64,000 bases of DNA from a bacterium (GTDB lineage: Bacteria > Patescibacteriota > Minisyncoccia > Phycocordibacterales > Phycocordibacteraceae), in NCBI GenBank assembly GCA_037200965.1, contig JBBCGK010000001.1, positions 800,001-864,000 of the forward strand, in the 5' to 3' direction. Positions within the stretch are counted from its first letter, which is position 1. Each line of letters opens with the position of its first letter. The position numbers and the translations under genes are program-made. The notes under the pieces are model-generated. The model did no database searches and was not told the origin of the DNA. It saw only the letters and a list, made by a program, of their open reading frames with translations. Below, in pieces: positions 1,243 to 17,669 of the stretch.

Positions 1243-1398
1243 ATTTGAACTCTAAGCCTCCAGCCTTCAATATGAATGACGGAAAGCTTCAAACGGTTTT
1301 AAAAGGCGGTGCATCAAGGCAGGACTGAAAAGTCTCTAAAAGAAAACTTTAACGTGCACAACCTCCTCGAAAGAGGACGGAAAAGTAAGGGCAAGGCA

Positions 1399-3291
1399 AT
1401 GAAAATGGATATGAACAAACAAAGCTCAAACAATAAAAAAGTACACCTCACCTCCGCCAATCTCTCCGAGGAGAAGCTGTTTGAGCTACGCCGCATCCTT
1501 CCCGAAGCGTTCAGCGAAAACAAGATTGACTGGGAGAAGCTCCGCACCGTTCTTGGTGACGCAGTAGACGCCCATATCGAGAAGTTCGGCTTTACCTGGG
1601 CAGGAAAAAGCAACGCTATCAAGAATGTTTTGATACCAAGCAAAGCCACACTCAACCCCGCTCCCGACGAGAGCGTGAAGTTCGATGAAAGCGAGAATCT
1701 CTTTATCGAAGGCGACAACCTCGAAGTCTTGAAGCTCTTGCAAAAAGCGTACTTCGAGAAGGTGAAGATGATTTATATAGACCCGCCATACAACACGGGC
1801 GGCGACTTCGTGTATAAGGACAACTTTGCCGCACCGCTCGACAACTATCTCAAGCAGACCGGCCAGAAGAACGGCAACGGCGAGCATCTCACAACCAACA
1901 AGGAGACCAACGGCCGCTTCCACAGCGACTGGCTTTCAATGATGTACCCACGCCTCAAGCTCGCGTGGAATCTTTTGCGTGATGATGGAGTGATATTTGT
2001 TTCGATTGACGATAACGAAGTGCATCATTTGCGAATACTAATGAATGAGATTTTTGGTGAGGAAAACTTCATCACTAATTTTGTTTGGCACTCTAGTACA
2101 GGTGGTGGTATCAGAAGCAAGTTTGCAAACCAGTCTCATCAATACGTTCTATGCTATGCAAAGAGTGTAGAAGACGTTGAGATGTTCTATGCGCCTCTTT
2201 CTGAAGATGCGAAGAAGCAATATAAGAAAGAGGATGAAAAAGGAGTCTATCGGGAGAAGGATTTTGCTTGGAAAAACTCATCGTGGGGAGCAAATCAAAA
2301 ATACTTCATCGAGTGTCCTGATGGTGAAAAAGCGAGACCAAAGGACGGGTATCTTTACCGCTTCATCGAACCAACTTTCAAGGAGAGTCTGGCAAATAAT
2401 ATGGTTGTCTTCAAAGAAGCAAGAAATAGTCCACTGGTAAATGAAAAAGGCGAGCAATCAAAATGGAACATCTATATCAAAAAGTATTTAGGTGATGGGA
2501 CAGGTGCTCCTTCATCAGTCATTCCGCGAGATTTAGTAGGAATCAATAATGAAGGCACTACAGAACTCAATGAACTGTTTGGTTCGAGTTTGTTTGAAAG
2601 CCCGAAGAATGTCCGGCTTTTGACATACCTACTCTCGTTAGCAGATAGCGATGATGGCGACATAATCCTCGATTTCTTTGCTGGCTCTGGTAGCACCTCT
2701 CACGCAGTGATGGCTCTGAACCAAAAGGATGGAATCAATAGAAAGTGGATTGTGGTTCAACTTCCAGAAAAGACTGACACGGATAGTGCCGCGTACAAAG
2801 CTGGATACAAAACCATTGCTGAACTTTCTGTAGAACGCATACGTCGCGCCGCGAAAAAGCTGGATGTCCAAGACGGCTTCAAGGTATTTAGACTGGCAGC
2901 ATCAAACTACCCAGAGAATACTTTTGAGTTCGACCCAGACAAGGCCGAGGAAGAGAACAAGGCGGCCTTCGAGGATTATTTGAAGCAAGCAAAGCGCGCC
3001 AAGCTTATTGACGACCTAGACGAGACGAGCGTCATCTACGAAAACATCGTCAAGGAAGGATTCTCGCTCAACTCCAAGATTCAGGAAGGCGTGCCAGGAA
3101 ACAACAAGGTCTACACCATCACCGACGGCGACCGGCAGTTTTCTATCTGCCTCGACCGTTCGATTGATGACACGACCGTAAAGAACATCACGGAGTGGGC
3201 TAAAGGAGCGACCTTTATCTGCTTCGATAATGCGCTCTCTGACAGCCAGAAAGCAAACCTCGGCCTCCACGTGGAGCTGAAAACGATATAA
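1399..3291 (+). CDS. mod: Type III restriction-modification methyltransferase (Mod, N6-adenine beta-class)
   Basis: DPPY motif (IYIDPPYNTGGDF) precedes the FxGxG SAM motif (LDFFAGSGSTSHAV). About 630 aa, directly upstream of res. ATG at 1399 has an AAGG RBS; the ORF is open from 1309. Confidence 0.85.
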   Translation: MKMDMNKQSSNNKKVHLTSANLSEEKLFELRRILPEAFSENKIDWEKLRTVLGDAVDAHIEKFGFTWAGKSNAIKNVLIPSKATLNPAPDESVKFDESENLFIEGDNLEVLKLLQKAYFEKVKMIYIDPPYNTGGDFVYKDNFAAPLDNYLKQTGQKNGNGEHLTTNKETNGRFHSDWLSMMYPRLKLAWNLLRDDGVIFVSIDDNEVHHLRILMNEIFGEENFITNFVWHSSTGGGIRSKFANQSHQYVLCYAKSVEDVEMFYAPLSEDAKKQYKKEDEKGVYREKDFAWKNSSWGANQKYFIECPDGEKARPKDGYLYRFIEPTFKESLANNMVVFKEARNSPLVNEKGEQSKWNIYIKKYLGDGTGAPSSVIPRDLVGINNEGTTELNELFGSSLFESPKNVRLLTYLLSLADSDDGDIILDFFAGSGSTSHAVMALNQKDGINRKWIVVQLPEKTDTDSAAYKAGYKTIAELSVERIRRAAKKLDVQDGFKVFRLAASNYPENTFEFDPDKAEEENKAAFEDYLKQAKRAKLIDDLDETSVIYENIVKEGFSLNSKIQEGVPGNNKVYTITDGDRQFSICLDRSIDDTTVKNITEWAKGATFICFDNALSDSQKANLGLHVELKTI

Positions 3292-3293
3292 CT

Positions 3294-5924
3294 ATGAAGT
3301 TCAAGTTTGACGCAAACCAAGATTTTCAAATAAACGCAGTCAACGCCATCGTTGGCGTCTTTGAAGGTCAGCCGAAGCGTCAAAGTGTGGTAGTAAATGT
3401 GCCCGCACTTTCCGTTTCCGGCTCATTGCCGCTCCAAACTACATACGGCATCTATCCGAACGAGCTGACGCTTTCCGACGAGGAGGTGTTTGCCAACGTC
3501 TGGAAGATTCAAGAGCAAAACAAAATCGGCAATGGCGGCACGGTTGAGGAGTACGACTTTTCTATCGAGATGGAGACGGGTACGGGTAAGACGTATGTGT
3601 ACCTTCGTACCGTCTTTGAACTCAACAAGCAATACGGATGGAAGAAGTTTATCGTTCTCGTGCCGTCCGTCGCCATCCGCGAGGGCGTCATCAAGACGCT
3701 CCAAATCACCAAAGACCACTTCGCCGAGCTGTACGACAACGTGCCGTACCGCTTCTACGAGTACCAGTCCAAGAACATCTCGCAGGTGAAGCGCTTTGCG
3801 GAATCCAGCAACCTGGAGATTATGGTGATGACGGTAGGTGCGTTCAACAAGGACGCGAACGTGCTCTATGCCGCCCGCGACCAGATGCAGGGCGAGCAGC
3901 CTATCAGCTACATCCAGCGCAGCAACCCCGTCCTCATCCTCGACGAGCCGCAGAATATGGAAGGTGAAGCGACGAAGGAGGCGCTCAAGAACTTCAACGC
4001 GCTTGCACGCCTGCGATACTCCGCGACGCATCGCAATCCGTACAACCTCATGTACCAGCTCACGCCGTTCGATGCGTATCAGCTCGGCCTCGTAAAGAAG
4101 ATTGAGGTGTATTCCGTTACGGATGACGACACCGGCATCTCGCGCCCGTCGCTCAACCTCATCTCCGTTGAATCCGGCAAGGCGCTCAAGGCAAAGTTAG
4201 AGGCCATCGTGAAAGATGCCGACGGCGCATTGAAGCGCAAGAAGCTCACCGTCAAACAGAACGACGACCTCGCGCAGAAGACCGGCAACGACGTATACGC
4301 CGGCTATATCGTGGACGAGCTTGACGCCGATGCGCCAGACCTCGGGCAGATTGGTAGGATTCGCTTTCGCAACAACGTGGAGATTCGCCAGGGTGAAGGC
4401 GTAGCAAACAACAACGAGCAAGTGATGCGCGAGCAGATTGAGCAGACCATCCGCCGCCACTTCGAGAAACGCAACCAGCTCCGCGATATGGGCATCAAGG
4501 TGCTCTCCCTCTTTTTCATAGACAAGGTAGACAACTACGTTCAATCAGACGGGTTTATCCGCTCTGCGTTCATAGCCGAGTTCAATCGCCTCAAGAAAGA
4601 CTATGGCGCTGACGGCATGGACGTGGATACCGTCCACAAGGGATATTTCGCCAAGCGCGGCGAGGAGTATTTGGAGCGAGAGTCCAGCATCGCCGAGAAC
4701 CAGGAAGCATACGAGCTGATTATGAAGGACAAGGAGCGCCTGCTTTCCTTCGATGAGCCGACGGAGTTCATCTTCTCGCACTCCGCACTCAAGGAAGGAT
4801 GGGACAACCCAAACATTTTCAATATCTGCACCCTGCGCGAGACCGTTTCAGTCATCCGCAAGCGCCAGGAGATTGGCCGAGGTATGCGCCTCTGCGTCAA
4901 TCAGGACGGAGAGCGTATTTTCTTGCGCAGCGTCAACCTGCTCTCCGTGATTGCAAACGAGAGCTATACGGAATACGTCTCATCGCTCCAGGGCGAATAC
5001 GAGGAGGACGGTATCTACAAGTCTGCGCCGTTGCCGAACAATGCCAAGCGAAAGACCACGGTGAAGCTCAAGAAAGATTTTGATAAGGACACGGACTTTG
5101 CTGGTATCTGGGAACGCATCTCGAAGAAGACCCGCTATGTCGTGCAGGTTGATAGCGAGCGCGTCATCGAAGCGTCCGCAAAGCAGATTGCGAAGCTCCA
5201 TCTCGCAAAGCCCAAGATGCGCGTCGAGCGCGCGGGCGTGAACATCGCGGCCGAAGGCATCACCGCAAACATCGTAGGCACCCGTGCCGAGGATTTGAGC
5301 CAGACCAAACGCACCATTGACCCTATCGAACTCATCAAAAACGAGACCAAGCTGACGCGCCACACGGTCGCGGAGATTTTGGCGAAAGCGGACAATACCG
5401 ACTCCTTCCTCAAGAATCCCGAACGCTTCTGCTTCGAGGCAACGCGCATCATCAAGGCCGAGCTGGTGAAGGATTACGTTTCCCAGATTCGCTATGAGGT
5501 ACTGCCGGAGCAGTATGACCTCAAGCAGTTCGAGGACATCCCGAGCTACAAGGACGCGACGCACAAGGTGAACAACTCCATCTACGACGCCATCGTGTAT
5601 GACTCCGACGTGGAGAAGAACTTTGCCGTCGCCCTCGATGCCGACGAGCGCGTGAAGCTCTTTATCAAGATGCCCAACTGGTTCAAGGTGAACACGCCTA
5701 TCGGCGGCTACAACCCCGACTGGGCAATCGTTACGGCCAAGCGAGACCTCCAGGGCAATGAGGAGAAGGAGCGCGTGTATTTCGTGATTGAGACGAAGGG
5801 CGACATCTCCAACATGCGCGAGAGCGAAGGACAAAAGATTGCTTCCGCCAAAAAGCACTTTGAAGTCATCGAGGTGAACTACAAGGAGGTCGAGAATTAT
5901 GGACAGTTTGCTGAACAACTATGA
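3294..5924 (+). CDS. res: Type III restriction endonuclease Res subunit (SF2 helicase plus C-terminal PD-(D/E)xK nuclease)
   Basis: Walker A METGTGKTYV, DExx-like ILDEPQN, C-terminal VIETKGD nuclease motif. 876 aa, 3 nt after mod. Confidence 0.85.
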   Translation: MKFKFDANQDFQINAVNAIVGVFEGQPKRQSVVVNVPALSVSGSLPLQTTYGIYPNELTLSDEEVFANVWKIQEQNKIGNGGTVEEYDFSIEMETGTGKTYVYLRTVFELNKQYGWKKFIVLVPSVAIREGVIKTLQITKDHFAELYDNVPYRFYEYQSKNISQVKRFAESSNLEIMVMTVGAFNKDANVLYAARDQMQGEQPISYIQRSNPVLILDEPQNMEGEATKEALKNFNALARLRYSATHRNPYNLMYQLTPFDAYQLGLVKKIEVYSVTDDDTGISRPSLNLISVESGKALKAKLEAIVKDADGALKRKKLTVKQNDDLAQKTGNDVYAGYIVDELDADAPDLGQIGRIRFRNNVEIRQGEGVANNNEQVMREQIEQTIRRHFEKRNQLRDMGIKVLSLFFIDKVDNYVQSDGFIRSAFIAEFNRLKKDYGADGMDVDTVHKGYFAKRGEEYLERESSIAENQEAYELIMKDKERLLSFDEPTEFIFSHSALKEGWDNPNIFNICTLRETVSVIRKRQEIGRGMRLCVNQDGERIFLRSVNLLSVIANESYTEYVSSLQGEYEEDGIYKSAPLPNNAKRKTTVKLKKDFDKDTDFAGIWERISKKTRYVVQVDSERVIEASAKQIAKLHLAKPKMRVERAGVNIAAEGITANIVGTRAEDLSQTKRTIDPIELIKNETKLTRHTVAEILAKADNTDSFLKNPERFCFEATRIIKAELVKDYVSQIRYEVLPEQYDLKQFEDIPSYKDATHKVNNSIYDAIVYDSDVEKNFAVALDADERVKLFIKMPNWFKVNTPIGGYNPDWAIVTAKRDLQGNEEKERVYFVIETKGDISNMRESEGQKIASAKKHFEVIEVNYKEVENYGQFAEQL

Positions 5925-6169
5925 ACTTCTATGGAGTCTTTATCGGGATAGACAGATACGCCTCTCCAAGTATCAACATGTTCGTGGACGAAGTGGCGGC
6001 AAACCGGAAGCTCGACACCGACAAGGTTGCGGCGCTCGCTGATGGCCGCACCTACGTTGGCACGGATGCCGTGAGCAACGGGCTGATTGACGGCATCGGC
6101 AGCATCCCCGAAGCGTCCGACTATCTCACTCAACAGATTGGTGAGCAGGCGTCTGTGTGTTGGTACTAA
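5921..6169 (+). pseudogene. Fragment resembling the C-terminal region of signal peptide peptidase SppA (S49); likely gene remnant
   Basis: 82-aa ORF with ...VDEVAANRKLDTDKVAALADGRTYVGTDAVSNGLIDGIGS..., resembling the SppA C-terminal helix region; no catalytic N-terminal part present. Overlaps the res stop and the DUF2726 start. Confidence 0.4.
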
Positions 6170-6699
6170 AAATTATGAACCTCTACGTCATCGCAGCAAT
6201 CATCATCGCCCTCGTCATCGTACTCGCTATACTCAAGGCGGTTGTTGAAGGCAGTGGTGGAGACAAGGAAAAGTCGAAGTACCGCTACACTCGCAAACAG
6301 TTTTTCCTTACCCGCGCCGAGCACGAGTGCTATGACGCCCTCGTTGCAGCGGTTGGCGATAAGTATTACGTCTTCGCGCAGGTACACCTTCCGACCATTC
6401 TCGATAACAAGGTGAAGGGGCAAGATTGGCGTGCCGCGCTTGCGCACGTCAGCCGCAAGTCCGTTGACTTCGTGCTCTGCGACAAGGCATACATTTCGCC
6501 GAAGCTCGCCATTGAGCTGGACGACAAGAGCCACGAGCGACCCGACCGGCAAGAACGGGACCGAGAAGTTGAGCGTATCTTGAGTGATGCAGGACTACCG
6601 CTTCTTCGACTGGAGAATCGCGGGGCGTTCAATACTGCGGAGCTGCTACAGAGGATTGATGATGCAGTGAAAGGTTTTGGTGAAAAAACCTCCTCCTAG
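6157..6699 (+). CDS. DUF2726-like protein (restriction-endonuclease-like fold, N-terminal TM helix)
   Basis: N-terminal hydrophobic helix then FLTRAEHECYDAL...VDFVLCD core typical of DUF2726. Sits at the edge of the RM island. Confidence 0.5.
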   Translation: MLVLKIMNLYVIAAIIIALVIVLAILKAVVEGSGGDKEKSKYRYTRKQFFLTRAEHECYDALVAAVGDKYYVFAQVHLPTILDNKVKGQDWRAALAHVSRKSVDFVLCDKAYISPKLAIELDDKSHERPDRQERDREVERILSDAGLPLLRLENRGAFNTAELLQRIDDAVKGFGEKTSS

Positions 6700-7100
6700 A
6701 GAGGGCATCCCCCGCCGAAAGGTCGGAAGCAAAAAGGAAACTACCACCACCCAGATTCCATATTTTCGTAGAAAACATTGAAGATGCACGGGGTATACCC
6801 CTCTGATGTACCTCTGCGTGTCTTCTGCTACAGAATAAGCACTAGAAAGCACACAGTGCCGGATAAAGGGAACACTGGTAAAGCAAGGCCAGGCGCGCGA
6901 CAGTGCTCCTGGCCTTGTGCGGCAGTGGGGTGGCTATGCGGCTACTACCGAGAGTAATTGCTGCATCTGCTGGAGAGAAACGGTAGGATATGGGAACATC
7001 CAGCCAGTTGATAGTTCGTAGTTCCTCCCTCCAAGCCAGCCAACTTGAGGCAGGTTCGGTAGTCCGAGGTGCATCAAAATCGTCTGTTACAATTTTCGTA

Positions 7101-7634
7101 ATGAAAACCATCCTTGTCATTCGACATTCTCATTGGGATGGGCAAACAGATACTCTCAGCCTGGAAGGTATAGCTGATTGCGAAGCAAAGAAGACCACTC
7201 TTGGATCTTTTACTACAGTTATTGCCTCTCCCTTCAATCGCACGGTAGAAGCGGCTCGGCTCCTAAGTGGTAATGATCCAGTTGTCGATGACCGAGCATC
7301 TATGCTCGCCTTAACACCGGAAGAGGCTGCCTGGCTGAAGGAGGCTCGCAAGAACTCTCCGCTCGGAGTGGCGGGGGTTATTTTCGGTCGACCAGATTTT
7401 CTAGAACCAGTAAAAGTCGCTGGAGAAAAGTGTCTTTCGCTTATAGAAGAGACGCTCGAAAAGTTACCTCTTGATGGGAGAGCACTTATTGTCTCGCATG
7501 ACGGGACTATGGTTGCAGTCGAGAAGTTACTCAAAAATGAACCGTTTTCTGGTCCGTTAGACCATACCTACGGAAACCTTGAAGGATTTGAGGTTGATGC
7601 TAACCTTAAATTCACTAAGCTCGCCTTCACATGA
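7101..7634 (+). CDS. Histidine phosphatase family protein (phosphoglycerate-mutase-like)
   Basis: N-terminal LVIRHSHW (RHG motif), C-terminal SHDG. Start moved to ATG 7101 inside the ORF open from 6990. Confidence 0.6.
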   Translation: MKTILVIRHSHWDGQTDTLSLEGIADCEAKKTTLGSFTTVIASPFNRTVEAARLLSGNDPVVDDRASMLALTPEEAAWLKEARKNSPLGVAGVIFGRPDFLEPVKVAGEKCLSLIEETLEKLPLDGRALIVSHDGTMVAVEKLLKNEPFSGPLDHTYGNLEGFEVDANLKFTKLAFT

Positions 7635-8608
7635 TCGTCCCTGCAAAAGAACTCCTAGATTTTGCCTACAAGAAATTCTCTGTGGGTGCCTATAACATCC
7701 ACAACCTCGAGCAGTTGATGGGACTCCTCTATGGAAGCCAAAAATCAAACGCGCCCTTTATCGTTCAGGCGTACCCGAGCACCCTCAACTACACGGACGC
7801 TAGCATGCTCGAAGCCCTTTTCCATGAGGCAGACAAGCTTTTTCCTGACCTGATTTTTGCCGTCAGTATTGATCATGGCGATGAAGCTACATGTATGAGA
7901 GCTATTGATTCGGGAGCGTACTCACACGTGATGATAGACGCTTCAATGGAAACCTTTGAGAAGAATATCGAGATTACGAAACGTGTCGTCGATCATGCGC
8001 ATTCTCGCGGCGTATCCGTGGAAGGTATGGTAGGAAAACTCGGTGGTCTGGAAAAGCACATGAAAGTTCTCGACGTATCCGAAGTGCAATTGACCACCGT
8101 TGAACAGGCACGAGAGTTTGCGGAGAGAACTGGCTGCGACAGTCTTGCTGTGTCTATCGGTACACTACATGGTGCTAACAAGGCTCCAGACGGCATACCT
8201 CGAAAGGTAGACCTCGATCGTCTCAAGGAAATAGGTGAAGCGCTCGAAGGTACTCCACTTGTTATGCACGGTTCGTCCTGCCTGCCACAGGAGGAAGTAA
8301 GACGGGTAGACGCCGCAGGAGGAAAGCTTGAACGCGTCGGAGGAATGGATGAAACACAGCAAAGTGAGGTACATAAACTTGGAGTTGCTCAGATAAATGT
8401 AAACAGCGATGGCCTTCTTATCTGGACGCGCTCGATCAGAGAATATCTGAGGGACTATCCAGGCGTGATTGATTTACGTGAGTCGGGCAAGGCTTTTATG
8501 CAGGAGTATGCGAGTTTCATAGCTCACAAGAATGATGTGTTCGGCTCATCCGGCAAACTTGATGCGTTGACAGAACACTACGAAACCCCATGGACATTAA
8601 TGAACTAG
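7631..8608 (+). CDS. Class II ketose-bisphosphate aldolase (fructose/tagatose-bisphosphate aldolase family)
   Basis: GAYNIHNLE, SIDHGDE, VMIDASMETFEKNI, GKLGGLE and HGSS motifs in class II FBA order. Confidence 0.8.
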   Translation: MIVPAKELLDFAYKKFSVGAYNIHNLEQLMGLLYGSQKSNAPFIVQAYPSTLNYTDASMLEALFHEADKLFPDLIFAVSIDHGDEATCMRAIDSGAYSHVMIDASMETFEKNIEITKRVVDHAHSRGVSVEGMVGKLGGLEKHMKVLDVSEVQLTTVEQAREFAERTGCDSLAVSIGTLHGANKAPDGIPRKVDLDRLKEIGEALEGTPLVMHGSSCLPQEEVRRVDAAGGKLERVGGMDETQQSEVHKLGVAQINVNSDGLLIWTRSIREYLRDYPGVIDLRESGKAFMQEYASFIAHKNDVFGSSGKLDALTEHYETPWTLMN

Positions 8609-9348
8609 AAAAAATCGATACGACCGTTATCAGCGACCTAATCGTCTCGCGTCTTCCATTGCCACTGCAAACATCACAAAAAGAGAATTTACTCTCGCCC
8701 AAGCCTCAAGCGTTACAAGACGTCATTGCTGATATCGAAAAGATAGAACATGAATGGAAGCTTGATACTGCTGACGAAGGTCACACTTACGGACGTAAGC
8801 ATGCTGGTGAGACTATTCAACTTTGGTCTGTGCCGCCTAAGAGTGCGCAAGTACTGGAGAATCTCGTTGTACTTACGGGCGCTAAGACCATTCTTGAAAT
8901 AGGAACCTCAGCAGGATACGCTGCGCTTTTCTTAGCTCATGGTGCCAAAGCAAATGGCGGACATGTTTATACGATCGAGCTTCTTAAGGAGAAAGCTGAC
9001 CTTGCTCGGGGTAATTTTGATAAGTCTGGCCTTGATAACATCACGCTTATAGAAGATGAGGCGTCAAAAGTCTTGAGCGCTTGGGATAATGGGAAAATAG
9101 ACTTTGTTTTTCTCGATGCCGATAAGGAAAACTACGGAAAATATTTTGACCAACTTGTACCACTTATGAATATTAGTGGTCTTATCGTAGCTGATAACGT
9201 GAATGACTACGGTCACATGATGGAAGATTATTTGCAGAAGGTAAGTGGTACGCATCTTCCAAAGACGAGAACTGATCACAGGGTTAAGAGCTATTACCTA
9301 GCAATGCTTGAAAATGGGTTGATGGTTACTCAGAAGATATCTGAATAG
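8590..9348 (+). CDS. Class I SAM-dependent O-methyltransferase (family 3, caffeoyl-CoA OMT-like)
   Basis: ILEIGTSAGYAALFLA SAM motif and DFVFLDADKENY motif. Confidence 0.75.
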   Translation: MDINELEKIDTTVISDLIVSRLPLPLQTSQKENLLSPKPQALQDVIADIEKIEHEWKLDTADEGHTYGRKHAGETIQLWSVPPKSAQVLENLVVLTGAKTILEIGTSAGYAALFLAHGAKANGGHVYTIELLKEKADLARGNFDKSGLDNITLIEDEASKVLSAWDNGKIDFVFLDADKENYGKYFDQLVPLMNISGLIVADNVNDYGHMMEDYLQKVSGTHLPKTRTDHRVKSYYLAMLENGLMVTQKISE

Positions 9349-9526
9349 TTTTATTATTGAGAATTATTTTACTTTTCAAGCATCCTGAGAAATTAGGTCC
9401 AGAAGTACATATTTGGACTTCTCAAAAGGTAGTTTGGGCTCATATCTGCGACAGCCGACCTCAGCGAGAGCAGGACTAGCGTTCCAACACCGTCCCAGAC
9501 TCCCGCTCGATAAGCTTACTTTCTTC

Positions 9527-10126
9527 ATGGAGAAAATAGAGCAGCTGCGGGATGAGGTGCACAATCTATATGCCCAAAAACTTCCTGGCCGTGCTGACTG
9601 GGCTGACTGGATCTATGATAAGCATGTCGTTCTTGTTGGCAATGAAGCAAGGAAGATAGCCGAAATGTACGGAGGAAGTCCGGAGCTTGCAGAGGCTGCT
9701 GGACTTTTGCACGATGTGGCCGACGCAGTAATGAAGCGGCAGGATCCGAATCATGAAAAGGAAAGCCTGCGTATTGCACGGGAGATGCTGCAGAAGACCG
9801 GATTTGGCGACAAGGAGATAGCCATAGTGGTAGACGATGCGATCGCGAAGCATAGTTGCCATGGAGAGACTCGGCCCGTCTCTGCAGAGGGGAAGGCAAT
9901 GGCAGCGGGAGACGGTGTCGTTCATCTCACAAGTGATTTTTATAAGATTGCCGAGGCGGGGAAACTTGGTCATAAATCACCACGAGAGGTTGCAGAGTGG
10001 GCCCTGCCAAAACTAGAACGCGATTTCACCAATAAGATTGCCTATGATGATTTAAGGGAGGAGATACGGCCAGATTACGAACAACTTAGGAAACACTTTC
10101 AGGATCTAGCCTCGGCCGGGGTGTAG
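9527..10126 (+). CDS. HD-domain phosphohydrolase
   Basis: H...HD motif (LLHDVAD) with downstream metal-binding histidines. ATG 9527 preferred; the ORF is open from a TTG at 9413. Confidence 0.6.
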   Translation: MEKIEQLRDEVHNLYAQKLPGRADWADWIYDKHVVLVGNEARKIAEMYGGSPELAEAAGLLHDVADAVMKRQDPNHEKESLRIAREMLQKTGFGDKEIAIVVDDAIAKHSCHGETRPVSAEGKAMAAGDGVVHLTSDFYKIAEAGKLGHKSPREVAEWALPKLERDFTNKIAYDDLREEIRPDYEQLRKHFQDLASAGV

Positions 10127-10170
10127 AGGTCCAACTTCGTACCGGACAGCCAGCCGACAGTTTCGCCCGC

Positions 10171-11304
10171 TTGCCATCCTGCACAAGTTCAGATACATAT
10201 GGCACTCCTCCTAACTGAGGAGCGATGCGTCAATTCAACATACTGAAGGATACCGAGGGCTGGTTGTATATGCGCGAGCGGAGCATACGCTTCCTGCATA
10301 TGAGGAACAACGACGAGGTGCGGCATCGGGTCAAGGTGCTGGACTTCTGGAAAACGCACGGGGAGCGTGCGGCCAGGGACGCCTTCAGCGTCTCTCGCCG
10401 CACGCTCTTCCGTTGGCAGGCGAAGCTCGACCGCGCGCACGGGAGACTCGACGCGCTCGATCCCAAGTCGACGGCACCGAAGAATCGGAGGAGACGCATC
10501 GTCCTCCCCGAGGTCGAGACGTTCATCCTGAAGGAGCGCGCGGAGCATCCGAGGCTCGGCAAGGCGAAGCTCGCAGCCCTGCTGCGGGAGGACGGGTACC
10601 GGGTATCCGAATCGTATGTCGGGAGGGTCGTCGCGGACCTCAAGAGGAGAGGGCTGCTGCTCCCGCACAAGCCGCTCTCATACTATGCGCGAAGCGGCAC
10701 GTATCGGGAGAAGCCCGTATCGAAGCGCACGAAGCTGCGCAGGCGGCACAAGCGGGGCATGGAGCTCGACACCGTCGTCCGCTTCATCGACGGCGTGAAG
10801 CGGTACGTCCTGACCGCCATCGATGTCGAGAAGAAGTTCGCCTTCGCCGGCGCGTATACCGTCCACTCCTCCGCGTCCGCCGCCGATTTCCTCGCGCGCG
10901 TCATCGCGGTGTGCCCCTTCGACATCACGGAGCTCCAGACCGACAACGGCCCGGAGTTCGCCAAGAACTTCGAGGCGGGGTGCCGCGCCCTCGGCCTCAC
11001 CCACTTCAATACGTTTCCCCGCAGCCCGAAGATGAACGCGTTCGTCGAGCGGTTCAACCGGACGATCTCGGAGGACTGCATCATGCTCAATCGGCCGCTC
11101 CTGCGGGACGACGTCGCGGCATTCAACCTGAAGCTGGTCGACTGGCTGCTCTGGTACAACGCCCGGCGTCCGCACGAGTCCCTGGGACAGGTGCCGCCGC
11201 TCCGGTATATACTCTCCTCATTAACGGCCGAGGAGTGCCAGAGGTACTGGACGCGTACACATCCTTGACAGAATTTAGACCAGGCTGCATTGTGGCGTCG
11301 GCAA
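10171..11304 (+). mobile_element. IS481-family insertion sequence (boundaries tentative)
   Basis: Single rve/DDE transposase ORF. Imperfect inverted repeats TTGCCATCCTGCACAAG (10171-10187) and reverse complement of CTGCATTGTGGCGTCGGCAA (11285-11304) share TTGCC...CACAA cores. Followed by a sharp GC shift. Confidence 0.35.
10225..11268 (+). CDS. IS481-family DDE transposase (N-terminal HTH plus integrase-core rve domain)
   Basis: TAIDVEKK..., LQTDNGPEF, HFNTFPRSPKMNAFVERFNRTI motifs typical of the IS481/IS3 integrase core; 347 aa. Confidence 0.8.
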   Translation: MRQFNILKDTEGWLYMRERSIRFLHMRNNDEVRHRVKVLDFWKTHGERAARDAFSVSRRTLFRWQAKLDRAHGRLDALDPKSTAPKNRRRRIVLPEVETFILKERAEHPRLGKAKLAALLREDGYRVSESYVGRVVADLKRRGLLLPHKPLSYYARSGTYREKPVSKRTKLRRRHKRGMELDTVVRFIDGVKRYVLTAIDVEKKFAFAGAYTVHSSASAADFLARVIAVCPFDITELQTDNGPEFAKNFEAGCRALGLTHFNTFPRSPKMNAFVERFNRTISEDCIMLNRPLLRDDVAAFNLKLVDWLLWYNARRPHESLGQVPPLRYILSSLTAEECQRYWTRTHP

Positions 11305-11355
11305 GCCCTCTTGAGGCCTGTCCCTTGACAGTCGAAAAGAAAGGAGAAATCGAAT

Positions 11356-11616
11356 GTGAAGGACCCCCCTTGTTACAGGGGTATTGTCAGGAACATTCTT
11401 CCTGGCAACGACCCGTACGCCGTCGTTGAATGCGACGGCGTGCCTGACCTCGTTACCGTTTCTCTGGGCGCACAAAGAGGCGTTTGGGAAGACTCAAGCC
11501 TGCCAGTGGTAGGCTCTGCAGTGATCCTCAGCGACGTTCAGTGCGTTCATGGGAAGTGGCGGGCCTACAACGCCCGGTTGTTCAAACCATCAGATGGAAG
11601 AGGAGTCCATGGCTAA
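11356..11616 (+). CDS. Hypothetical small protein (GTG start, strong AAGGAG RBS)
   Basis: 86-aa ORF with AAGGAG 8 nt upstream of GTG; first gene of the high-GC module. Confidence 0.4.
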   Translation: MKDPPCYRGIVRNILPGNDPYAVVECDGVPDLVTVSLGAQRGVWEDSSLPVVGSAVILSDVQCVHGKWRAYNARLFKPSDGRGVHG

Positions 11617-12262
11617 CAAAGGAGTCATGGGGATTCTTGAAAGTATCGGGGCAGTCGAAGTCGTGAATGACGGAGACCCACCCCCACCACCTTCAAGTTT
11701 CCCACCCACCGCAGCGCCAACACCGGTCCTGCAGCCAAGTGTGGCTGTACCGGCTGCCGGCACGGCCGACCAGGGTATGGTCGGTAAAATCCGTGGGGCT
11801 GTCACCAGCCGCACGCATTCGCCTGGATTTGCGATTTTTCTGGCAAATTTCGAGAAGGCAAAACAAGCCTTCCCGAACGACCCTCGAAATGCCGCAGCCG
11901 CAGCGCTTGTCTTTTCTTCGCAGACCTCGCAAGAGATCGGCGCAGAACTGAGTCGCTCTGTGGCGGCATCTCTGGCCGAAGCCGGATCGCAGATCAATGT
12001 CGACATCGCGCAACAGCGCGAGAGGTTGGCAGGCCAGCTCGATGGCGAAGAAAGCAGTCTCGACGGTGAGATTCACCGATTCGAGGCGGATCTCGCCGCC
12101 ATCCAGAAAAAGCTCGACGATGCGAAAGGCGCGAAAGCGCAGATCGCGAGTCGTCGTGCTGATGGCAGGGCAGCCATCGACTCTCGTCTCGCAACGGCAC
12201 TCGCCAGTCTGGCAGTCGTTCGTGACGAGATCGCAACCATCAAATCAATATTGCCGTCGTAA
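11609..12262 (+). CDS. Hypothetical coiled-coil protein with Pro-rich linker
   Basis: MANKGVMGILESIGAVEV..., PPPPPSSFPP linker, C-terminal heptad-like Ala/Gln/Arg-rich region. GGAG RBS; overlaps the upstream gene by 8 nt. Confidence 0.45.
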   Translation: MANKGVMGILESIGAVEVVNDGDPPPPPSSFPPTAAPTPVLQPSVAVPAAGTADQGMVGKIRGAVTSRTHSPGFAIFLANFEKAKQAFPNDPRNAAAAALVFSSQTSQEIGAELSRSVAASLAEAGSQINVDIAQQRERLAGQLDGEESSLDGEIHRFEADLAAIQKKLDDAKGAKAQIASRRADGRAAIDSRLATALASLAVVRDEIATIKSILPS

Positions 12263-12294
12263 CCCGGCGGCTAGGAGAAAAGGATCAAAGGAAA

Positions 12295-13326
12295 ATGGCT
12301 CAACAGTCGAACATGAATGACTTCTTCGACCAGCTCCCGACTCCCCCACGGGAGAAGGCGATACGCTGGGGGTTCTATGCCGGTGTGAGCTTGCTCGCGC
12401 TTGGCGTGGGACTCAAGATCATGCCTCCTGTCAACAATCTGCTCGACATGATGCTTCATGGCGCGTGGACTCTCGGCGAGATCGGTCTGGTCGGCGCCAG
12501 CATCGCAGTCGGCACAGTGGCTTTTACCAGCCTCTGGCCGTCGTACCGTCGCTTCATGGAAAGTGTCGCGCGGCGCACAACCGTCGCGATCTATGGCGAC
12601 GATCCGATCACGCCGCTCCACATGTGGCTCGCGGAAGTGAGCTCGGATTGCGAACAGATCGAAGCAGCGCAAAGTGAAGTCAGCGGCATCATCGAGGAGA
12701 ACAAGAAGGCCGCCTCTGACAATCTGACGCTGCTTGCGCAATCCGATGCCAGGTTTGCTTTCGCGGTACGGAAGCACGGCGAAGAGAGTGACCAAGCCAG
12801 AAACGCCTCCGCGGAATCTGGTGGCTACAAAGATCGGGCCGAAAATGCAGACCGCATCAACGTCCCGCTCATTGAGCTTTATGAACTGCTTGATGAGATC
12901 GCGAAAGCGAATCGTCATGTCGAGCATGAAGCCAAAATCGCCATCGAGACAGCGGAGCAGGAATGGCGTGCCGCCCTCAAGGCAGAGATTGCCATGGGCG
13001 CGGCGACTCGCACTCTCAACAAGCGCAGTGAGCGGTATGTCAACGCCACCCTGGCGTTCGGCATCATCCGCCAGAAGTACGCCGGCAACTTCGGCAAGCT
13101 TCGTTCGCTGCGTCGCCTATCGGAGCAGGCCATCAATTCGGCGGCTCTGGAAGGAGGTGTCAAACTGCAGGAATCGCTTGCCCGCCTCCGTGCGGAAAGC
13201 AAGTCGCTTCTCGGTCACGCCCCCGCGCTTGCCGTCCCGGATTTCTCCGGAAAGGGCAGGCAGAAGGTTCCGGTTCCAGCTGGTTCCGGGCCCGCGTCCC
13301 TTCGTCTGTTCGACGAAGAGAAGTGA
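12295..13326 (+). CDS. Hypothetical membrane protein (2 N-terminal TM helices plus long coiled-coil)
   Basis: Two hydrophobic helices in residues about 20-80, then an extended charged helical region. Confidence 0.5.
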   Translation: MAQQSNMNDFFDQLPTPPREKAIRWGFYAGVSLLALGVGLKIMPPVNNLLDMMLHGAWTLGEIGLVGASIAVGTVAFTSLWPSYRRFMESVARRTTVAIYGDDPITPLHMWLAEVSSDCEQIEAAQSEVSGIIEENKKAASDNLTLLAQSDARFAFAVRKHGEESDQARNASAESGGYKDRAENADRINVPLIELYELLDEIAKANRHVEHEAKIAIETAEQEWRAALKAEIAMGAATRTLNKRSERYVNATLAFGIIRQKYAGNFGKLRSLRRLSEQAINSAALEGGVKLQESLARLRAESKSLLGHAPALAVPDFSGKGRQKVPVPAGSGPASLRLFDEEK

Positions 13327-13369
13327 AATAACGCGTAACTCAGGAAAACAGTAACCAAGGAGAAAAGAA

Positions 13370-14926
13370 GTGGAACACCAGATTACCCTCAAAGGAAGAA
13401 TCTACCTCGGACTCGGAATCGCTGCGCTAGCGGTAATTCTGATCTGGGTCCTTCAGAACTTCATCCCGACCTCGTGGAAGGATGCAGTCACCGAGACAGT
13501 CGCGCCGGGCGGAAGCCCGACGACGCTTTCCAGTGACGGTTCGGACGTGATCAACGTCTGTGTCGTCACCTGGGGTGGCTACGTGGGTGGCGAGTACTTC
13601 AACGGCGGCTTCAAGCCGTCGGAGCAGTCCCGCTACTACAAGCAATACGGCCTGAAGGTCAAGTTCCAGATCATGGACGAGTTCGTTCCCTCGCGGGATG
13701 CGTGGAAGTCCGACAAGTGTCATCTTCTCTGGGCGACCGTCGACGCCTTCACCACGGAGGCGGCGAACCTCCAGAGAGCGGGGTACGACCCCCGGTTTGT
13801 CTTCCAGGCGGACTGGTCGCGCGGCGGCGATGCTATCGTCGTCGGCCCCGGCATCAATTCGATGCGGGACCTGCGTGGCAGGACGATTGCGGTGGCCTAC
13901 GGGACACCGTCACACACGTTCTTGCTGCGCATGCTCGAATCGGCAAACATGCAGAAAGGAGACGTCACCCTTATCGATACCGGAAGCGCTATCGATGCGG
14001 CCAAGGCGTTCCAGACGCGCAGCGCAGATGCGGCTGTGGTCTGGTCTCCGGATGACGTGGCCAGTGTCAGGGCGATTCCTGGCGCCAAGGTCCTCGTCAG
14101 TTCCAAGCAGGCATCGCACATCATCGCCGATGGCTTCTTCGCGAAGGAGGAATACATCGCGGCACACCGTGAACAACTCCAGCACCTCATCGAAGGCTGG
14201 ATGATCGGTGCCGCCGAGATCAACTCCGATCCCGCGGCGAAGCAGAAGGCTGCAACCATCCTGGCCGACGGTCTCAATCTGTCGGTCGACGATGCTCTGG
14301 CAGCCATCAACAACGTCCGGCTCACCACGTTCGGTGACAACCTGGCGTTCTTCGGCCTCGACAGCAGCTATACCGGCATGACTGGTGAACGGCTCTTCCG
14401 CGACAGCGGCGCGCTGTACCAGAAGAACGGGTACGCAAATCTGGTGCCGAGCGTGCCGGACTGGCGTACGGTCATCGACCTGAGCCTGCTGCGTAACATC
14501 AGCCTGACGGGCCCGGAACATGCGGCCGAAAGCACGGTTCGTTTTGCCGTGCCGACGACCGCAGATGTCAAGGCCAATGCCTTCTCGTCGAAGGCGCTGT
14601 CGGTCCAGTTCTCAATCGGGTCCGCAGTGCTGACTGACGAGGCGAAGGCGAACATCGCGACCAACTTCGTGCCGACGGCACAGTCGTTCGCGAATGCGCG
14701 CATTCGTATCGAAGGCAACACCGACAGCACGGGCAGCCGTGCGATCAATGTCGATCTGTCCCGCCGGCGTGCCCAGGCAGTCGCAGACTACCTGGGCAGC
14801 TTCGGTTTCGATCCCAACCGCTTCATCGTGGCGGGGAACGGGCCGGACAAGCCAGCATGTGGTACGAGCGATGCCGGGTGCCTGGCACAGAATCGTCGTA
14901 CCGACTTCGAGCTGCTGAACAACTAG
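13370..14926 (+). CDS. Membrane-anchored ABC substrate-binding protein (NitT/TauT/SsuA-like) fused to a C-terminal OmpA-like peptidoglycan-binding domain
   Basis: N-terminal TM helix; SBP body (VVTWGGY..., TIAVAYGTPSHTFLL); C-terminal NTDSTGSRAINVDLSRRRAQAVADYLG...RRTDFELL OmpA_C-like motif. GTG start with AAGGAG RBS. Confidence 0.65.
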   Translation: MEHQITLKGRIYLGLGIAALAVILIWVLQNFIPTSWKDAVTETVAPGGSPTTLSSDGSDVINVCVVTWGGYVGGEYFNGGFKPSEQSRYYKQYGLKVKFQIMDEFVPSRDAWKSDKCHLLWATVDAFTTEAANLQRAGYDPRFVFQADWSRGGDAIVVGPGINSMRDLRGRTIAVAYGTPSHTFLLRMLESANMQKGDVTLIDTGSAIDAAKAFQTRSADAAVVWSPDDVASVRAIPGAKVLVSSKQASHIIADGFFAKEEYIAAHREQLQHLIEGWMIGAAEINSDPAAKQKAATILADGLNLSVDDALAAINNVRLTTFGDNLAFFGLDSSYTGMTGERLFRDSGALYQKNGYANLVPSVPDWRTVIDLSLLRNISLTGPEHAAESTVRFAVPTTADVKANAFSSKALSVQFSIGSAVLTDEAKANIATNFVPTAQSFANARIRIEGNTDSTGSRAINVDLSRRRAQAVADYLGSFGFDPNRFIVAGNGPDKPACGTSDAGCLAQNRRTDFELLNN

Positions 14927-15004
14927 ACGCAGCTTGAATAGCTTGAGCCTTGGGGGAGGTGGTCGAGAGATCACCTCCCCTTTCTGTTAGAGGAGACAAA
15001 GGGT

Positions 15005-15811
15005 ATGCAAGAGAGGCTGACGAATTTGTTCGAGTTGCGCGGTAACGCGTCGGCTCGGCAAAATACGTTGCTTGGCATCGTGGGAGTGTCCCTCTGGTTG
15101 TTCTCATGGTGGCTCTTCGCCACCCTCGGGATTCTGCCGCGGCAGATTGCTCCCGGACCGTTTGAGGTCCTCGGGGTGGTACCGGACATGCACTTCCATG
15201 ACATGCTTGTGCGCAATGTCTGGTTTAGCTTCGAGATGAATCTCCTGGCGACCTTCATTGCGATCGTGATCAGTGTACCCATGGGGCTGGCGCTGGGCCT
15301 GCTGCCGTTCTTCCGCGGCATGTCCACGCCATTCTTCGTCGGGCTGCGCTTTCTGCCGCTGCCAGTGGCCACGATCCTGTTCATGGCGTGGCTGGGTATC
15401 GGCTACACCATGAAAACGGCCTTCCTCACGGTGGCCATTGCCGTCTATCTGGTGCCAACCGTGATCCAGCGGGTCGACGAAGTGCGTCAAGTCTATGTCG
15501 ACACGGTGCGGACACTCGGCGCGAATGAATGGCAGCTGGTCCGCTACGTCTATCTTCCCGATGTGTTCTCGCGCGTCTGGGACGATATCGTGATCCTGGT
15601 CGGTCTCTCGTGGACCTACATCAGTTTCATCGAGCTCATCAACAAAGGCGAGGGCGGCATCGGCGCGCTGATCTATTCGGCTCAACGCACCCATAGCATG
15701 GAGAAGTACTATGCACTCCTGCTGATCATTATGTTCGTGGCGTTCATCCAGACAGCCATCTTCAAACTGATCGGCCGGGTGCTCTTCCCCTATAAGCGCA
15801 TCGGAGGCTAG
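15005..15811 (+). CDS. ABC transporter permease (NitT/TauT family)
   Basis: Six predicted TM helices, an EAA-like loop, and translational coupling to the ATPase. Confidence 0.8.
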
Positions 15812-15813
15812 CC

Positions 15814-16617
15814 ATGACTGGTGTGGAATTCGTCAACACCGACCTCCCCGATATCATCGAATTGCGGGGGGTTACCCAGCGCTATGGGCAGAGGACGGTT
15901 CTGGACGGACTCAACCTGCTCATTGAAGACAAACCCGATCAGGGCCAGTTCGTAGTCCTGCTCGGCATCTCCGGCTCCGGCAAGTCAACGATCTTCCGCT
16001 ATCTCAATGGTCTGCAGACGCCGACCAGCGGGGCGGTGCTGATCAAGGGCAAGCCGGTGTCAGAGTATGGTGCGGTCAGTACGGTATTCCAGGACTATTC
16101 GTCCTTGCCGTGGCGGACCGTGCTTCAAAACGTCGAACTTCCGCTCGTCTTCAAAAGCGTGAAGAAGAGGGAACGGCGTGAGCGGGCGCTCGAGATAATC
16201 GCCCGTGTGGGACTTAAGGGTCACGAGCATAAATACGCTCGTACCCCGACGCTCTCCGGCGGCCAGCTGCAGCGGGTCGCTATCGCGAGAAGCTTGATTG
16301 CAAATCCGGAGATCATCCTGATGGATGAACCTTTCGGCGCGCTTGACGGCATCACCCGCTTCGAAATGCAGCAGCTGCTCGCTGATCTGTGGAAGACTTC
16401 GCAGTCGACCATCGTCTTCGTCACGCATGACCAGCAAGAAGCGGTCTTCCTGGGCGACGACATCTATGTGCTGGATCCGCGGATCGGCAAGATCGGTTCG
16501 CGTATCCGTGTGGATCTTCCGCTCGTGCGGGACCTTTCCACCAAACGTGACCCGCGCTTCATGCAGCTGGTCACCGAGGTAGATATGGCTCTGATGGAGA
16601 CCAGTCTGCCGCGCTAA
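15814..16617 (+). CDS. ABC transporter ATP-binding protein
   Basis: Walker [10 protein letters not shown], signature [15 protein letters not shown], Walker [12 protein letters not shown]. Confidence 0.85.
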
Positions 16618-16647
16618 GAATTGTTATTTCTACTGCACCTTCAGAAG

Positions 16648-16676
16648 GCGGAGCCGCAAGCTCCGCTTTTCTTTTT
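16648..16676 (+). terminator. Rho-independent terminator after the ABC operon
   Basis: GCGGAGC-cgcaa-GCTCCGC hairpin followed by TTTTCTTTTT. Confidence 0.5.
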
Positions 16677-16882
16677 ATATTGTTCCCTAACTTTCCTGCA
16701 CACAGCCGAGAGGACCTCGTTCCTTGGAGGCGGGTATTGGGGTTTGGGTCCCTGTCGGGCAGCCAAATCATGCGAGGTTGCTGCGCTCGAGACGCGCTGT
16801 TTTTAGCTAATTCGATTTGCCAAATAAAGTAAGAAAAGGTCTGGGAGCTTTTAGTTCTAACAAGAAATGGTAATCCAAACTC

Positions 16883-17212
16883 TTATACGGACAGGAATTT
16901 TGCTATATTAAATTTCTCATTCTGATTAAGCGCTGAGTCCAGGAAAGTAAAGGCTTCGTTATGCTTTATAATCGCCGCTGCAATTACCTTCTGTAATTCA
17001 TTAAGAATTTCTGCTGGCAAGTGTCCAATCTTACGATATTTTTCTAGAAGCTGCTTTTCGCTTACATATGCTCGTGTAGGATTATAAAACCAGCCACGAT
17101 TATCTGTATATTCTATATAATAACAACCACCAGTACTATCCTTTGTCGTGATTATACGGGACTCGCCAAACTCACTTCGAACCACATCTCCTACCAAAAG
17201 TTCTTTCTTCAT
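16883..17212 (-). CDS. Hypothetical protein in AT-rich (about 36% GC) orphan segment
   Basis: 109-aa ORF; strong compositional contrast with flanking 60% GC DNA. Confidence 0.45.
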   Translation of the reverse strand: MKKELLVGDVVRSEFGESRIITTKDSTGGCYYIEYTDNRGWFYNPTRAYVSEKQLLEKYRKIGHLPAEILNELQKVIAAAIIKHNEAFTFLDSALNQNEKFNIAKFLSV

Positions 17213-17411
17213 ATGATTATCTTGATTAGAATTCTATTCCTTTAAATTCTCTTTGCAATGGCTCTGGATAGTGCACGAGACGCGTCGTTTGGATAGTGTA
17301 AATGGAGTCAATCCGACTAAACGGGGCTTAACCATCCACGGTTCTAACACGAGACGGCCAGTCCGTAACTTCTAAGGCCCGTTCACAGTTAGATGTACTA
17401 TAACCGCAACT

Positions 17412-17669
17412 ATGCCTTTCAAATCAAAATGGGGCTCATACCTTGCCTTGGGCGTAACCGCTCTCCTGCTGTCTCGCGGAATGTTTGCCGCTTTCAACGA
17501 TCCTGAGGGCCCGAATCTGCTTATTGTCGTAGGGATGGCAGCGATCATATATTCCTTATCGCTCACGGTATACGCGTTCGGCTCTCCTGCTGCTGATCTC
17601 AAGAAACTCCTGTCAGCGGTTCTTATTCAAATGCTTCTGGTTATAAGTCTCTATGTTCTGTTGGGCTAG
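17412..17669 (+). CDS. Small hypothetical membrane protein (2-3 TM)
   Basis: 85 aa, almost entirely hydrophobic helices. Confidence 0.4.
   Translation: MPFKSKWGSYLALGVTALLLSRGMFAAFNDPEGPNLLIVVGMAAIIYSLSLTVYAFGSPAADLKKLLSAVLIQMLLVISLYVLLG

Follow-up and report, generated by a model that had tools for sequence, protein, structure and literature searches.

A tightly packed group of six genes, here designated a-b-c-d-e-f, was analyzed in a 64,000-nucleotide (nt) stretch of a bacterial genome of the Phycocordibacteraceae (Patescibacteriota; GenBank assembly GCA_037200965.1, contig JBBCGK010000001.1, positions 800,001 to 864,000 of the forward strand); this whole stretch is referred to as the window, and positions are counted from its first letter. 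The six genes are a single operon of a widespread family of envelope modules, in which an ATP-binding cassette (ABC) transporter substrate-binding protein (SBP) fused to an OmpA-like peptidoglycan-binding domain (d) is encoded together with a permease (e), an ATPase (f) and two conserved coiled-coil proteins (b and c). This kind of operon has already been recorded computationally (Ravi et al., 2024), and the locus in the window is a typical member of it, neither a one-off fusion nor the cargo of a neighboring insertion sequence (IS). As to its role, we lean toward envelope maintenance or stress protection, in which a PspA-like c, together with b, would be tied to ABC import tethered to the cell wall.

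All six genes are co-directional and tightly packed, a and b overlapping by 8 nt and e and f being separated by 2 nt (Table 1). The list of open reading frames (ORFs) agreed with the gene positions and order, all on the plus strand, that were given in a first-pass annotation made from the letters of the window alone, and the terminator that it had placed after f was recovered as a hairpin with a T run. That annotation had counted five genes; five is right for most lineages of the family, whereas the lineage of the window has six. The start of b at 11609 (MANKG) follows the gene call in a record with an identical d (GCA_037975565.1, contig JBBCBH010010897.1).

Table 1. Features of the six-gene operon, its counterparts elsewhere and its surroundings in the window (aa, amino acids; TM, transmembrane; rows naming other loci give positions in those loci)
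Feature	Positions	Strand	Remarks
Gene a	11356-11616	+	86 aa; ORF; GTG start after AAAGGAG
Gene b	11609-12262	+	217 aa; ORF itself open from 11549
Gene c	12295-13326	+	343 aa; ORF
Gene d	13370-14926	+	518 aa; ORF
Gene e	15005-15811	+	268 aa; ABC permease ORF
Gene f	15814-16617	+	267 aa; ABC ATPase ORF
Terminator-like hairpin	16644-16670	+	11 bp and T run; 3′ of f; end of operon
c, hydrophobic hairpin, aa ~25-81	12367-12537	+	two predicted TM helices; hydropathy and model
c, candidate PspA/Vipp1-like helical domain, aa 103-306	12601-13212	+	opens at near-invariant D103-P104
d, signal-anchor TM helix, aa 11-29	13400-13456	+	hydropathy 2.33; K/R solely on the N-terminal side, N-terminus predicted inside
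d, substrate-binding domain, aa ~60-390	13547-14539	+	type 2 periplasmic binding fold, NitT/TauT class
d, OmpA-like (Pal/MotB-type) peptidoglycan-binding domain, aa 411-513	14600-14908	+	Pfam OmpA
d/e hairpin	14952-14981	+	GC-rich, 13 bp, then U-rich tract; fold -32.5 kcal/mol, z -2.7
d/e hairpins in other loci	L003 11567-11637; L009 9564-9652; L011 7549-7690; L012 7426-7488		unrelated sequences
Module in Prevotella phage Lak-A1 (MK250016.1, 354477-369886 = L092)	b 4358-5053; c 5256-6320; d 6830-8419; e 8938-9774; f 9780-10724		in order
IS481-like transposase	10225-11268	+	rve, rve_3, HTH_32; transpos_IS481 169 bits vs. cut-off 224
17-nt inverted repeat	10194-10210 / 11230-11246		transposase ORF extends 22 nt beyond
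Type III restriction-modification, N6_N4 methylase	1309-3291		
Type III restriction-modification, Res helicase-endonuclease	3294-5924		
Second BPD_transp_1 permease	346-1095	-	E 9e-23; unrelated to module context

When one genome per species was scanned, at least 554 species proved to encode a relative; the best 80 loci were retained, and profiles for a to f were searched against all of their ORFs. The order b-c-d-e-f was kept in about 70 of these 80 genome loci, in Patescibacteria, Bacteroidota, Spirochaetota and others. Among 91 sources (the window and 90 loci, some of them duplicates), 50 carried b-c-d-e-f and nine a-b-c-d-e-f, the rest being mostly cut by contig ends. Besides Patescibacteria, the carriers comprise many Bacteroidota, including the cultured Aquimarina, Tenacibaculum finnmarkense and Lacihabitans, as well as Turneriella, Fibrobacter, Caldithrix, a Geobacter metagenome-assembled genome (MAG) and Thiotrichaceae. 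The same gene run (a protein of ~213 aa, one of ~343 aa, the fusion, permease and ATPase) was present in a soil relative of 82% identity, a Bacteroidales MAG, a Minisyncoccia MAG and a 164-kb contig; the other neighbors were unrelated among these four, none of which had an IS, and housekeeping genes lay nearby in other genomes. Over at least five phyla and in phages, b and c stay beside d-e-f while all else around them changes.

Outside b to f, the only recurring neighbors were an AAA+ ATPase and two lineage-specific small membrane proteins. The AAA+ ATPase (634 aa, with AAA and AAA_lid_6 domains and a long N-terminal region) is encoded directly 3′ of f in 22 Bacteroidota loci from Flavobacteriia, Cytophagia and Bacteroidales, for example at 9996-11900 of locus L057 from Aquimarina sp. 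LLG6339-5. Some variation within the family was also seen. Five Bacteroidota loci (L021, L031, L034, L037 and L053) have no recognizable c, and a longer b-like protein of 265-271 aa abuts d; they may represent a sub-variant of the operon. In L021, a multi-TM protein of 170 aa (3836-4348) is encoded some way 5′ of b. Further, one locus labeled as a Nanoarchaeota archaeon (L025, JAUSIT010000016.1) holds a full Patescibacteria-type a-b-c-d-e-f, by binning error or transfer.

Phages carry the module as well. Over its full length, d belongs to the PHROGs family phrog_25518 (E 1.6e-44), while PHROGs gave no match for a, b or c. By tblastn, d was found in 15 Lak megaphage genomes with 37-39% identity, and in Prevotella phage Lak-A1 the genes b to f stand in order (Table 1). 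A scan of IMG/VR yielded 62 d-bearing loci (L093-L154), 55 of which have the full b-c-d-e-f; the AAA+ gene was found in none of the 62. The contigs have a median length of 145 kb and a maximum of 519 kb, with 42 of at least 100 kb and 16 of at least 200 kb, and the 164-kb contig mentioned above is one of them. The Lak genomes are curated; some of the IMG/VR contigs may be Patescibacteria fragments taken for viral by mistake. The Lak phage papers examined do not mention the module, and no paper was found on its presence in huge phages. The first-pass annotation had allowed that its reading would fall if the proteins upstream of the transporter were conserved with it in no other genome. They accompany it in about 70 of 80 genome loci and 55 of 62 viral loci, so that the upstream genes travel with the transporter and this ground for abandoning the reading fails. 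Its view that the layout is not that of a standard importer is likewise supported.

Protein d combines, behind an N-terminal helix and in one ORF, matches to Pfam NMT1 (aa 161-289, E 4.7e-10, 40.2 bits, cut-off 20.5) and Pfam OmpA (PF00691, E 6.4e-15, 55.7 bits, cut-off 27.2), in agreement with the TM-anchored NitT/TauT-type SBP with an OmpA domain that had been described. A profile search of PDB placed SsuA (2x26), TauA (6ssy) and NrtA closest to the binding domain, and the C-domains of OmpA, Pal and MotB closest to the C-terminal domain (E 1e-23 to 1e-21). In a protein search, more than 2,600 proteins matched d significantly; the best 120 are all of ~500-550 aa and all have OmpA, and nearly all have an NMT1-type domain too. 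Identity is about 50% even to proteins of Bacteroidota, Spirochaetia and several Patescibacteria classes; the closest named relatives are from Paceibacteria (61 and 56%), with others in Minisyncoccia and Saccharibacteria. Far from being rare, the fusion is widespread and has a name at NCBI, where some homologues are entered as [quoted passage not shown]. Because so many homologues have equal length and both domains, the fusion is no sequencing artefact, and the possibility that the OmpA segment is a separate ORF, which would have undone the first-pass reading, is set aside.

The conservation of d is strong over both domains. Across 22 aligned sequences that represent several phyla, the mean column identity was 59%, more than 40 columns of the binding domain were invariant, and the invariant aromatic residues included W68, Y71, Y76, W121, W149, W225 and W277. 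The N-T-D...R motif (N450, T451, D452 and R467) was invariant in all 22 sequences as well. In the structures of Pal and AbOmpA, the conserved Asp and Arg of the OmpA-like domain hold the peptide stem.

The permease and the ATPase were identified as in the first-pass annotation, e by BPD_transp_1 (E 8e-12) and f by ABC_tran (E 3.9e-28) of Pfam. For a, b and c of the window, neither Pfam nor NCBIfam gave a family. Protein e is TauC/SsuC-like, with six TM segments predicted by hydropathy and an EAA-type coupling loop read from the translation, while the TauB/SsuB-like f has, also by its translation, an intact Walker A (GISGSGKST), signature (LSGGQ), Walker B (ILMDEP) and H-loop. No equivalog-level NCBIfam match of d, e or f to TauABC, SsuABC, NrtABC or urea-carboxylase-associated transporters was obtained: d scored 84 bits with TIGR03427 (aa 66-301, cut-off 333.9) and 67.5 bits with SsuA_fam, also below cut-off, e scored 74 bits with TauC (cut-off 342), and f scored 194.9 bits with TauB (equivalog cut-off 357). 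Since all the equivalog scores are far under their cut-offs, annotation rules do not allow taurine, sulfonate or nitrate to be assigned as the substrate.

Between d and e lies a GC-rich hairpin followed by a U-rich tract, and hairpins of differing sequence were found at this place in all four other Patescibacteria-type loci tested (Table 1). The hairpin is probably an internal attenuator or an mRNA stabilizer, and its recurrence together with the U tract suggests that the a-d product is in excess over e-f.

The evidence on c, consistent but weak, points to a divergent, membrane-anchored candidate relative of PspA/Vipp1 in the ESCRT-III superfamily, a likeness absent from the first-pass annotation. 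That annotation had called c a two-TM coiled-coil membrane protein, and long helices do follow a hydrophobic hairpin at its N-terminus. By hydropathy, a TM segment lies at aa 63-81 with four K/R among the next 15 residues, and the model has helices at aa 18-42 and 61-100. The K/R on either side of the TM hairpin place both ends in the cytoplasm; the first TM segment is slightly under the hydropathy threshold, and a single-TM topology is possible. In the AlphaFold model (input alignments of 11 sequences for c and four for b), the hydrophobic helices precede a long helical hairpin of aa 105-237, with a pLDDT of 75-92, and two shorter helices come after it. Searches with an HMMER profile gave a c family of 283 clusters at 50% identity, nearly all of 320-350 aa with end-to-end matches, whereas word-based searches returned close relatives only.

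Three kinds of comparison related this family to Vipp1 or PspA. Foldseek of the c model against PDB placed Vipp1 at ranks 1-5 (E 4e-3 to 2e-2, ~19% identity over ~220 columns). A profile of 80 c members searched against PDB sequences gave Vipp1 as the top four (E 3.3e-4 to 6.6e-4), with generic coiled coils at 2e-3, and aligned c 102-235 with Vipp1 23-151, so that the Asp-Pro of c is paired with the (E)DP at the start of helix 1 in Vipp1. Lastly, PspA_IM30 was the most frequent Pfam match in the c family (13 of 80 members, best E 4.3e-7), and in four c relatives the match begins at profile positions 20-23, opposite the Asp-Pro motif each time. The TM hairpin of c might stand in for the usual N-terminal amphipathic helix.

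The family of b is encoded directly 5′ of c in almost all loci. In its AF2 model (pLDDT 75 overall, 93-98 over aa 130-210), a disordered, Pro-rich linker (aa ~1-52) leads into three short helices and then a helix of ~108 residues, which agrees with its description as a Pro-linker coiled-coil protein; an N-terminal motif (consensus LKNLKSLF) and a small helical domain (consensus NNLxGFDYLEF) are conserved. Assignment of b itself to PspA was tried and rejected, since Pfam gave a PspA signal for 0 of 52 members and Foldseek, hhalign and the PDB profile search gave none, and a relationship of b and c as paralogues was rejected also (hhalign probability 27%). Gene a was found only in Patescibacteria-type loci (13 ORFs) and had no match in Pfam, PHROG or PDB; with W44, W68-R69-A70 and A73-R74 invariant in eight aligned sequences, it is a real conserved small protein.

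The closest described counterpart is the operon reported by Ravi et al. (2024; mSystems, PMC11237479), which encodes PspA, a TM-Snf7 protein, an AAA+ ATPase, an ABC transporter and a PBPB+OmpA binding protein. It was given as one example without experiments (OGG56892.1, from Candidatus Handelsmanbacteria), in the order PspA, PBPB+OmpA, permease, ABC ATPase, TM+Snf7 and inactive-AAA+AAA, and was read as membrane remodeling linked to solute transport (PMC11237479). Both that operon and the one in the window have an SBP+OmpA protein, a permease, an ABC ATPase, a membrane-anchored divergent PspA/Snf7-like protein and further coiled-coil proteins, the TM-Snf7 protein and c being likened by description. 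With the AAA+ ATPase, the reported operon also resembles the 22 Bacteroidota loci of the present family. The operon in the window differs in its order (a, b, c with TM and PspA-like parts, PBPB+OmpA, permease, ATPase), in having no AAA+ ATPase and a b that is not recognizably PspA, and in the extra gene a. In the literature searched, no experimental study of the fusion or the operon was found, nor anything beyond Ravi et al. (2024), and neither the AAA+-less form nor the occurrence of the module in phages was described.

Parts of the module were compared with better-known systems as well. With PspA, Vipp1 (IM30) and LiaH, c probably has in common a helical hairpin core starting from (E)DP, and it has a predicted cytoplasmic, membrane-adjacent position; it differs from these classical proteins in having a TM hairpin anchor instead of an amphipathic helix or PspBC/LiaI partners and in its sub-threshold scores, and its locus is transporter-linked and lacks PspF/PspBC or LiaFSR partners. 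Like TauABC, SsuABC and NrtABCD, d-e-f comprises an NMT1/SsuA-type SBP, a six-TM EAA permease and a TauB-like ATPase, but its SBP is TM-anchored and bears an OmpA-like domain, and two or three extra conserved genes accompany it. The C-domain of d matches the family of Pal (Tol-Pal), MotB/PomB, YiaD and TssL strongly and keeps the peptidoglycan-binding residues, but here this anchor is joined to a solute-binding domain, where those proteins have a lipoprotein, a stator plug or a beta-barrel. Finally, an AAA+ ATPase accompanies the ESCRT-III-superfamily-like protein in the Bacteroidota operon, a combination like that of archaeal and eukaryotic ESCRT-III with Vps4 (CdvB/CdvC). Unlike Vps4, this ATPase has AAA and AAA_lid_6 domains, a long N-terminal region and no MIT domain identified, and it is missing from the window.

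Envelope maintenance or stress protection, the reading that we lean toward, would work as follows. Protein c, aided by b, would assemble on the cytoplasmic face of the membrane in the manner of PspA/Vipp1 polymers and stabilize or reshape the membrane, while d-e-f would take up a small solute as a functioning type I importer of the NitT/TauT class. The N-terminal helix of d would fasten the protein to the membrane and the OmpA-like domain would fasten it to peptidoglycan, and by this double fastening the transporter, and hence the c/b assembly, is proposed to sit where membrane and wall join. The d/e hairpin would raise a, b, c and d over the permease and ATPase, as would suit a surplus of binding protein and polymer-forming b and c. 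The AAA+ ATPase of the Bacteroidota operons probably remodels the c/b assembly, much as Vps4 acts on ESCRT-III. Topology prediction placed b and the domain of c on the cytoplasmic side and both domains of d, for binding and OmpA-like, outside; as predicted, the parts span cytoplasm, membrane and wall, in line with the envelope-spanning arrangement foreseen in the first-pass annotation. Its alternative wording, a tethering system, suits the OmpA-like part only; the intact importer features argue for real transport.

Several results weigh against this reading. We infer import by d-e-f, the c/b polymer and the coupling of c/b to the transporter from predicted features. The c protein of the window has no Pfam match of its own; the four relatives with matches in the same register scored 16.8-25.8 bits, under the PspA_IM30 (PF04012) threshold of 33.9; and NCBIfam models run on 80 c-family members gave no PspA model, only coiled-coil noise of the SMC/Rad50 type. 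The AlphaFold model of c is of low confidence (pLDDT 58 overall). A comparison of the c profile with a single E. coli PspA sequence by hhalign was negative (probability 3%), a single-sequence template being a weak test; a search for PspA in plasmid records gave matches that were 90-95% identical to E. coli PspA in 441 of 462 cases, nearly all enterobacterial, and no diverse profile. For b, Pfam, PDB profile search, Foldseek and hhalign returned generic coiled-coil matches only and no recognizable relatives. Further, tblastn with the Aquimarina AAA+ ATPase found nothing in the 64-kb window or in the Patescibacteria and phage loci.

The main rival is a plain nutrient importer, in which the peptidoglycan anchor would keep the SBP near the cell, b and c would be accessory proteins or regulatory scaffolds that do not remodel membranes and the PspA likeness would be coiled-coil noise; we regard it as doubtful, though deserving of real weight. 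A binding protein held by peptidoglycan is useful where lipoprotein anchoring is unused. In favor of such an importer, d-e-f has a full set of canonical parts, and the very strong conservation of the binding domain is what a specific ligand pocket would call for. A hairpin 3′ of the binding-protein gene is common in importer operons, and the PspA evidence for c stays under thresholds. A plain importer accounts poorly, however, for the retention of b and c with d-e-f in at least five phyla and in phages while the other neighbors change, for three independent comparisons that rank Vipp1 first in one register, and for the dedicated AAA+ ATPase that has been added to the operon in Bacteroidota.

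Two further proposals would make the ABC unit something other than a nutrient pump. According to the first, which is speculative and in our judgment unlikely, b-c-d-e-f is a self-contained ESCRT-III-like envelope-remodeling machine of Patescibacteria, Bacteroidota and giant phages; the ABC "importer" would serve as its anchor, energy supply or stress sensor, and huge phages would carry the module so as to maintain or remodel the membrane of the host while a long infection lasts. The second, still less probable, holds that the ABC unit does not import but converts ATP hydrolysis into mechanical work like FtsEX or LolCDE, either driving the c/b polymer to assemble or disassemble in the forms without an AAA+ ATPase or pulling on the wall through d, as part of an ESCRT-like remodeling or division machine. 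The double fixation of d to membrane and wall, odd for a receptor of a diffusing solute, would fit such a device, as would the Patescibacteria and phage forms that have no AAA+ ATPase although polymers of the ESCRT-III type normally need one, and giant phages are likelier to manipulate the envelope than to need another nutrient. However, e and f are of the type I importer kind, EAA loop included, and not of the MacB/FtsX mechanotransmission type, and the binding domain of d retains the ligand-binding NMT1/SsuA pattern.

The surroundings of the operon were examined for signs of mobility. An IS481-like transposase gene lies directly 5′ of the module, and the first-pass annotation had taken both as a single acquired block of about 63% GC. 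The GC content was 59.0% over 11356-16617 and 59.7% over 10200-16617, against 55.4% for the whole window, and just the transposase gene reaches 63.7%. The module genes have a GC of 0.58-0.61 and a GC3 of 0.57-0.79, which lie inside about 1-1.5 standard deviations of the 68 ORFs of the window (0.556 +/- 0.047 and 0.64 +/- 0.10, respectively), and several other regions of the window are equally GC-rich. This composition is ordinary for the window and gives no mark of one acquired block. Low-GC stretches (43-46%) at ~8500-9500 and 16600-17600 bracket the IS and the module, and are odder for the window than the module is.

The IS itself does not form part of the unit, contrary to what had been supposed, as neither the 82%-identical relative nor any other locus has it. 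Only one inverted repeat was convincing, and it lies within the IS region; the check for target-site duplications proposed in the first-pass annotation saw none around the block or the IS. Logan contigs with the operon end at ~11230, by the right repeat arm, and at ~11057, within the transposase gene, which suggests that the element is repeated in the genome. Elsewhere in the window, a DUF2726 nuclease-like gene (6157-6699) follows the Res gene of the Type III restriction-modification system, and the separate minus-strand permease noted earlier at the far left was confirmed (Table 1). A defense system was considered and rejected: PADLOC gave nothing for a, b, c or e, only the MotB/OmpA part of ZorB for d, and only generic ABC/AAA for f. 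Mobile cargo of IS481, perhaps an anti-phage or phage-derived exclusion system, is very improbable: the adjacent transposase, the Type III methylase/Res and DUF2726 genes at 1.3-6.7 kb, the differing flanks in the window and the 82%-identical relative and the carriage by phages could be read in its favor, but the IS occurs in no relative, no target-site duplication was seen and the composition is typical of the window, which essentially excludes IS481 cargo, while PADLOC returned nothing specific and the neighbors in other genomes are housekeeping genes.

PspA, Vipp1 and ESCRT-III are general cellular machinery for membrane repair and remodeling. In this operon family, a PspA-like protein would be linked physically with both an ATP-driven transporter and the cell wall. 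Its retention by Patescibacteria with very small genomes and by the largest known phages argues for an important and portable envelope function, and the cultivable carriers Aquimarina, Tenacibaculum and Lacihabitans make this function testable.

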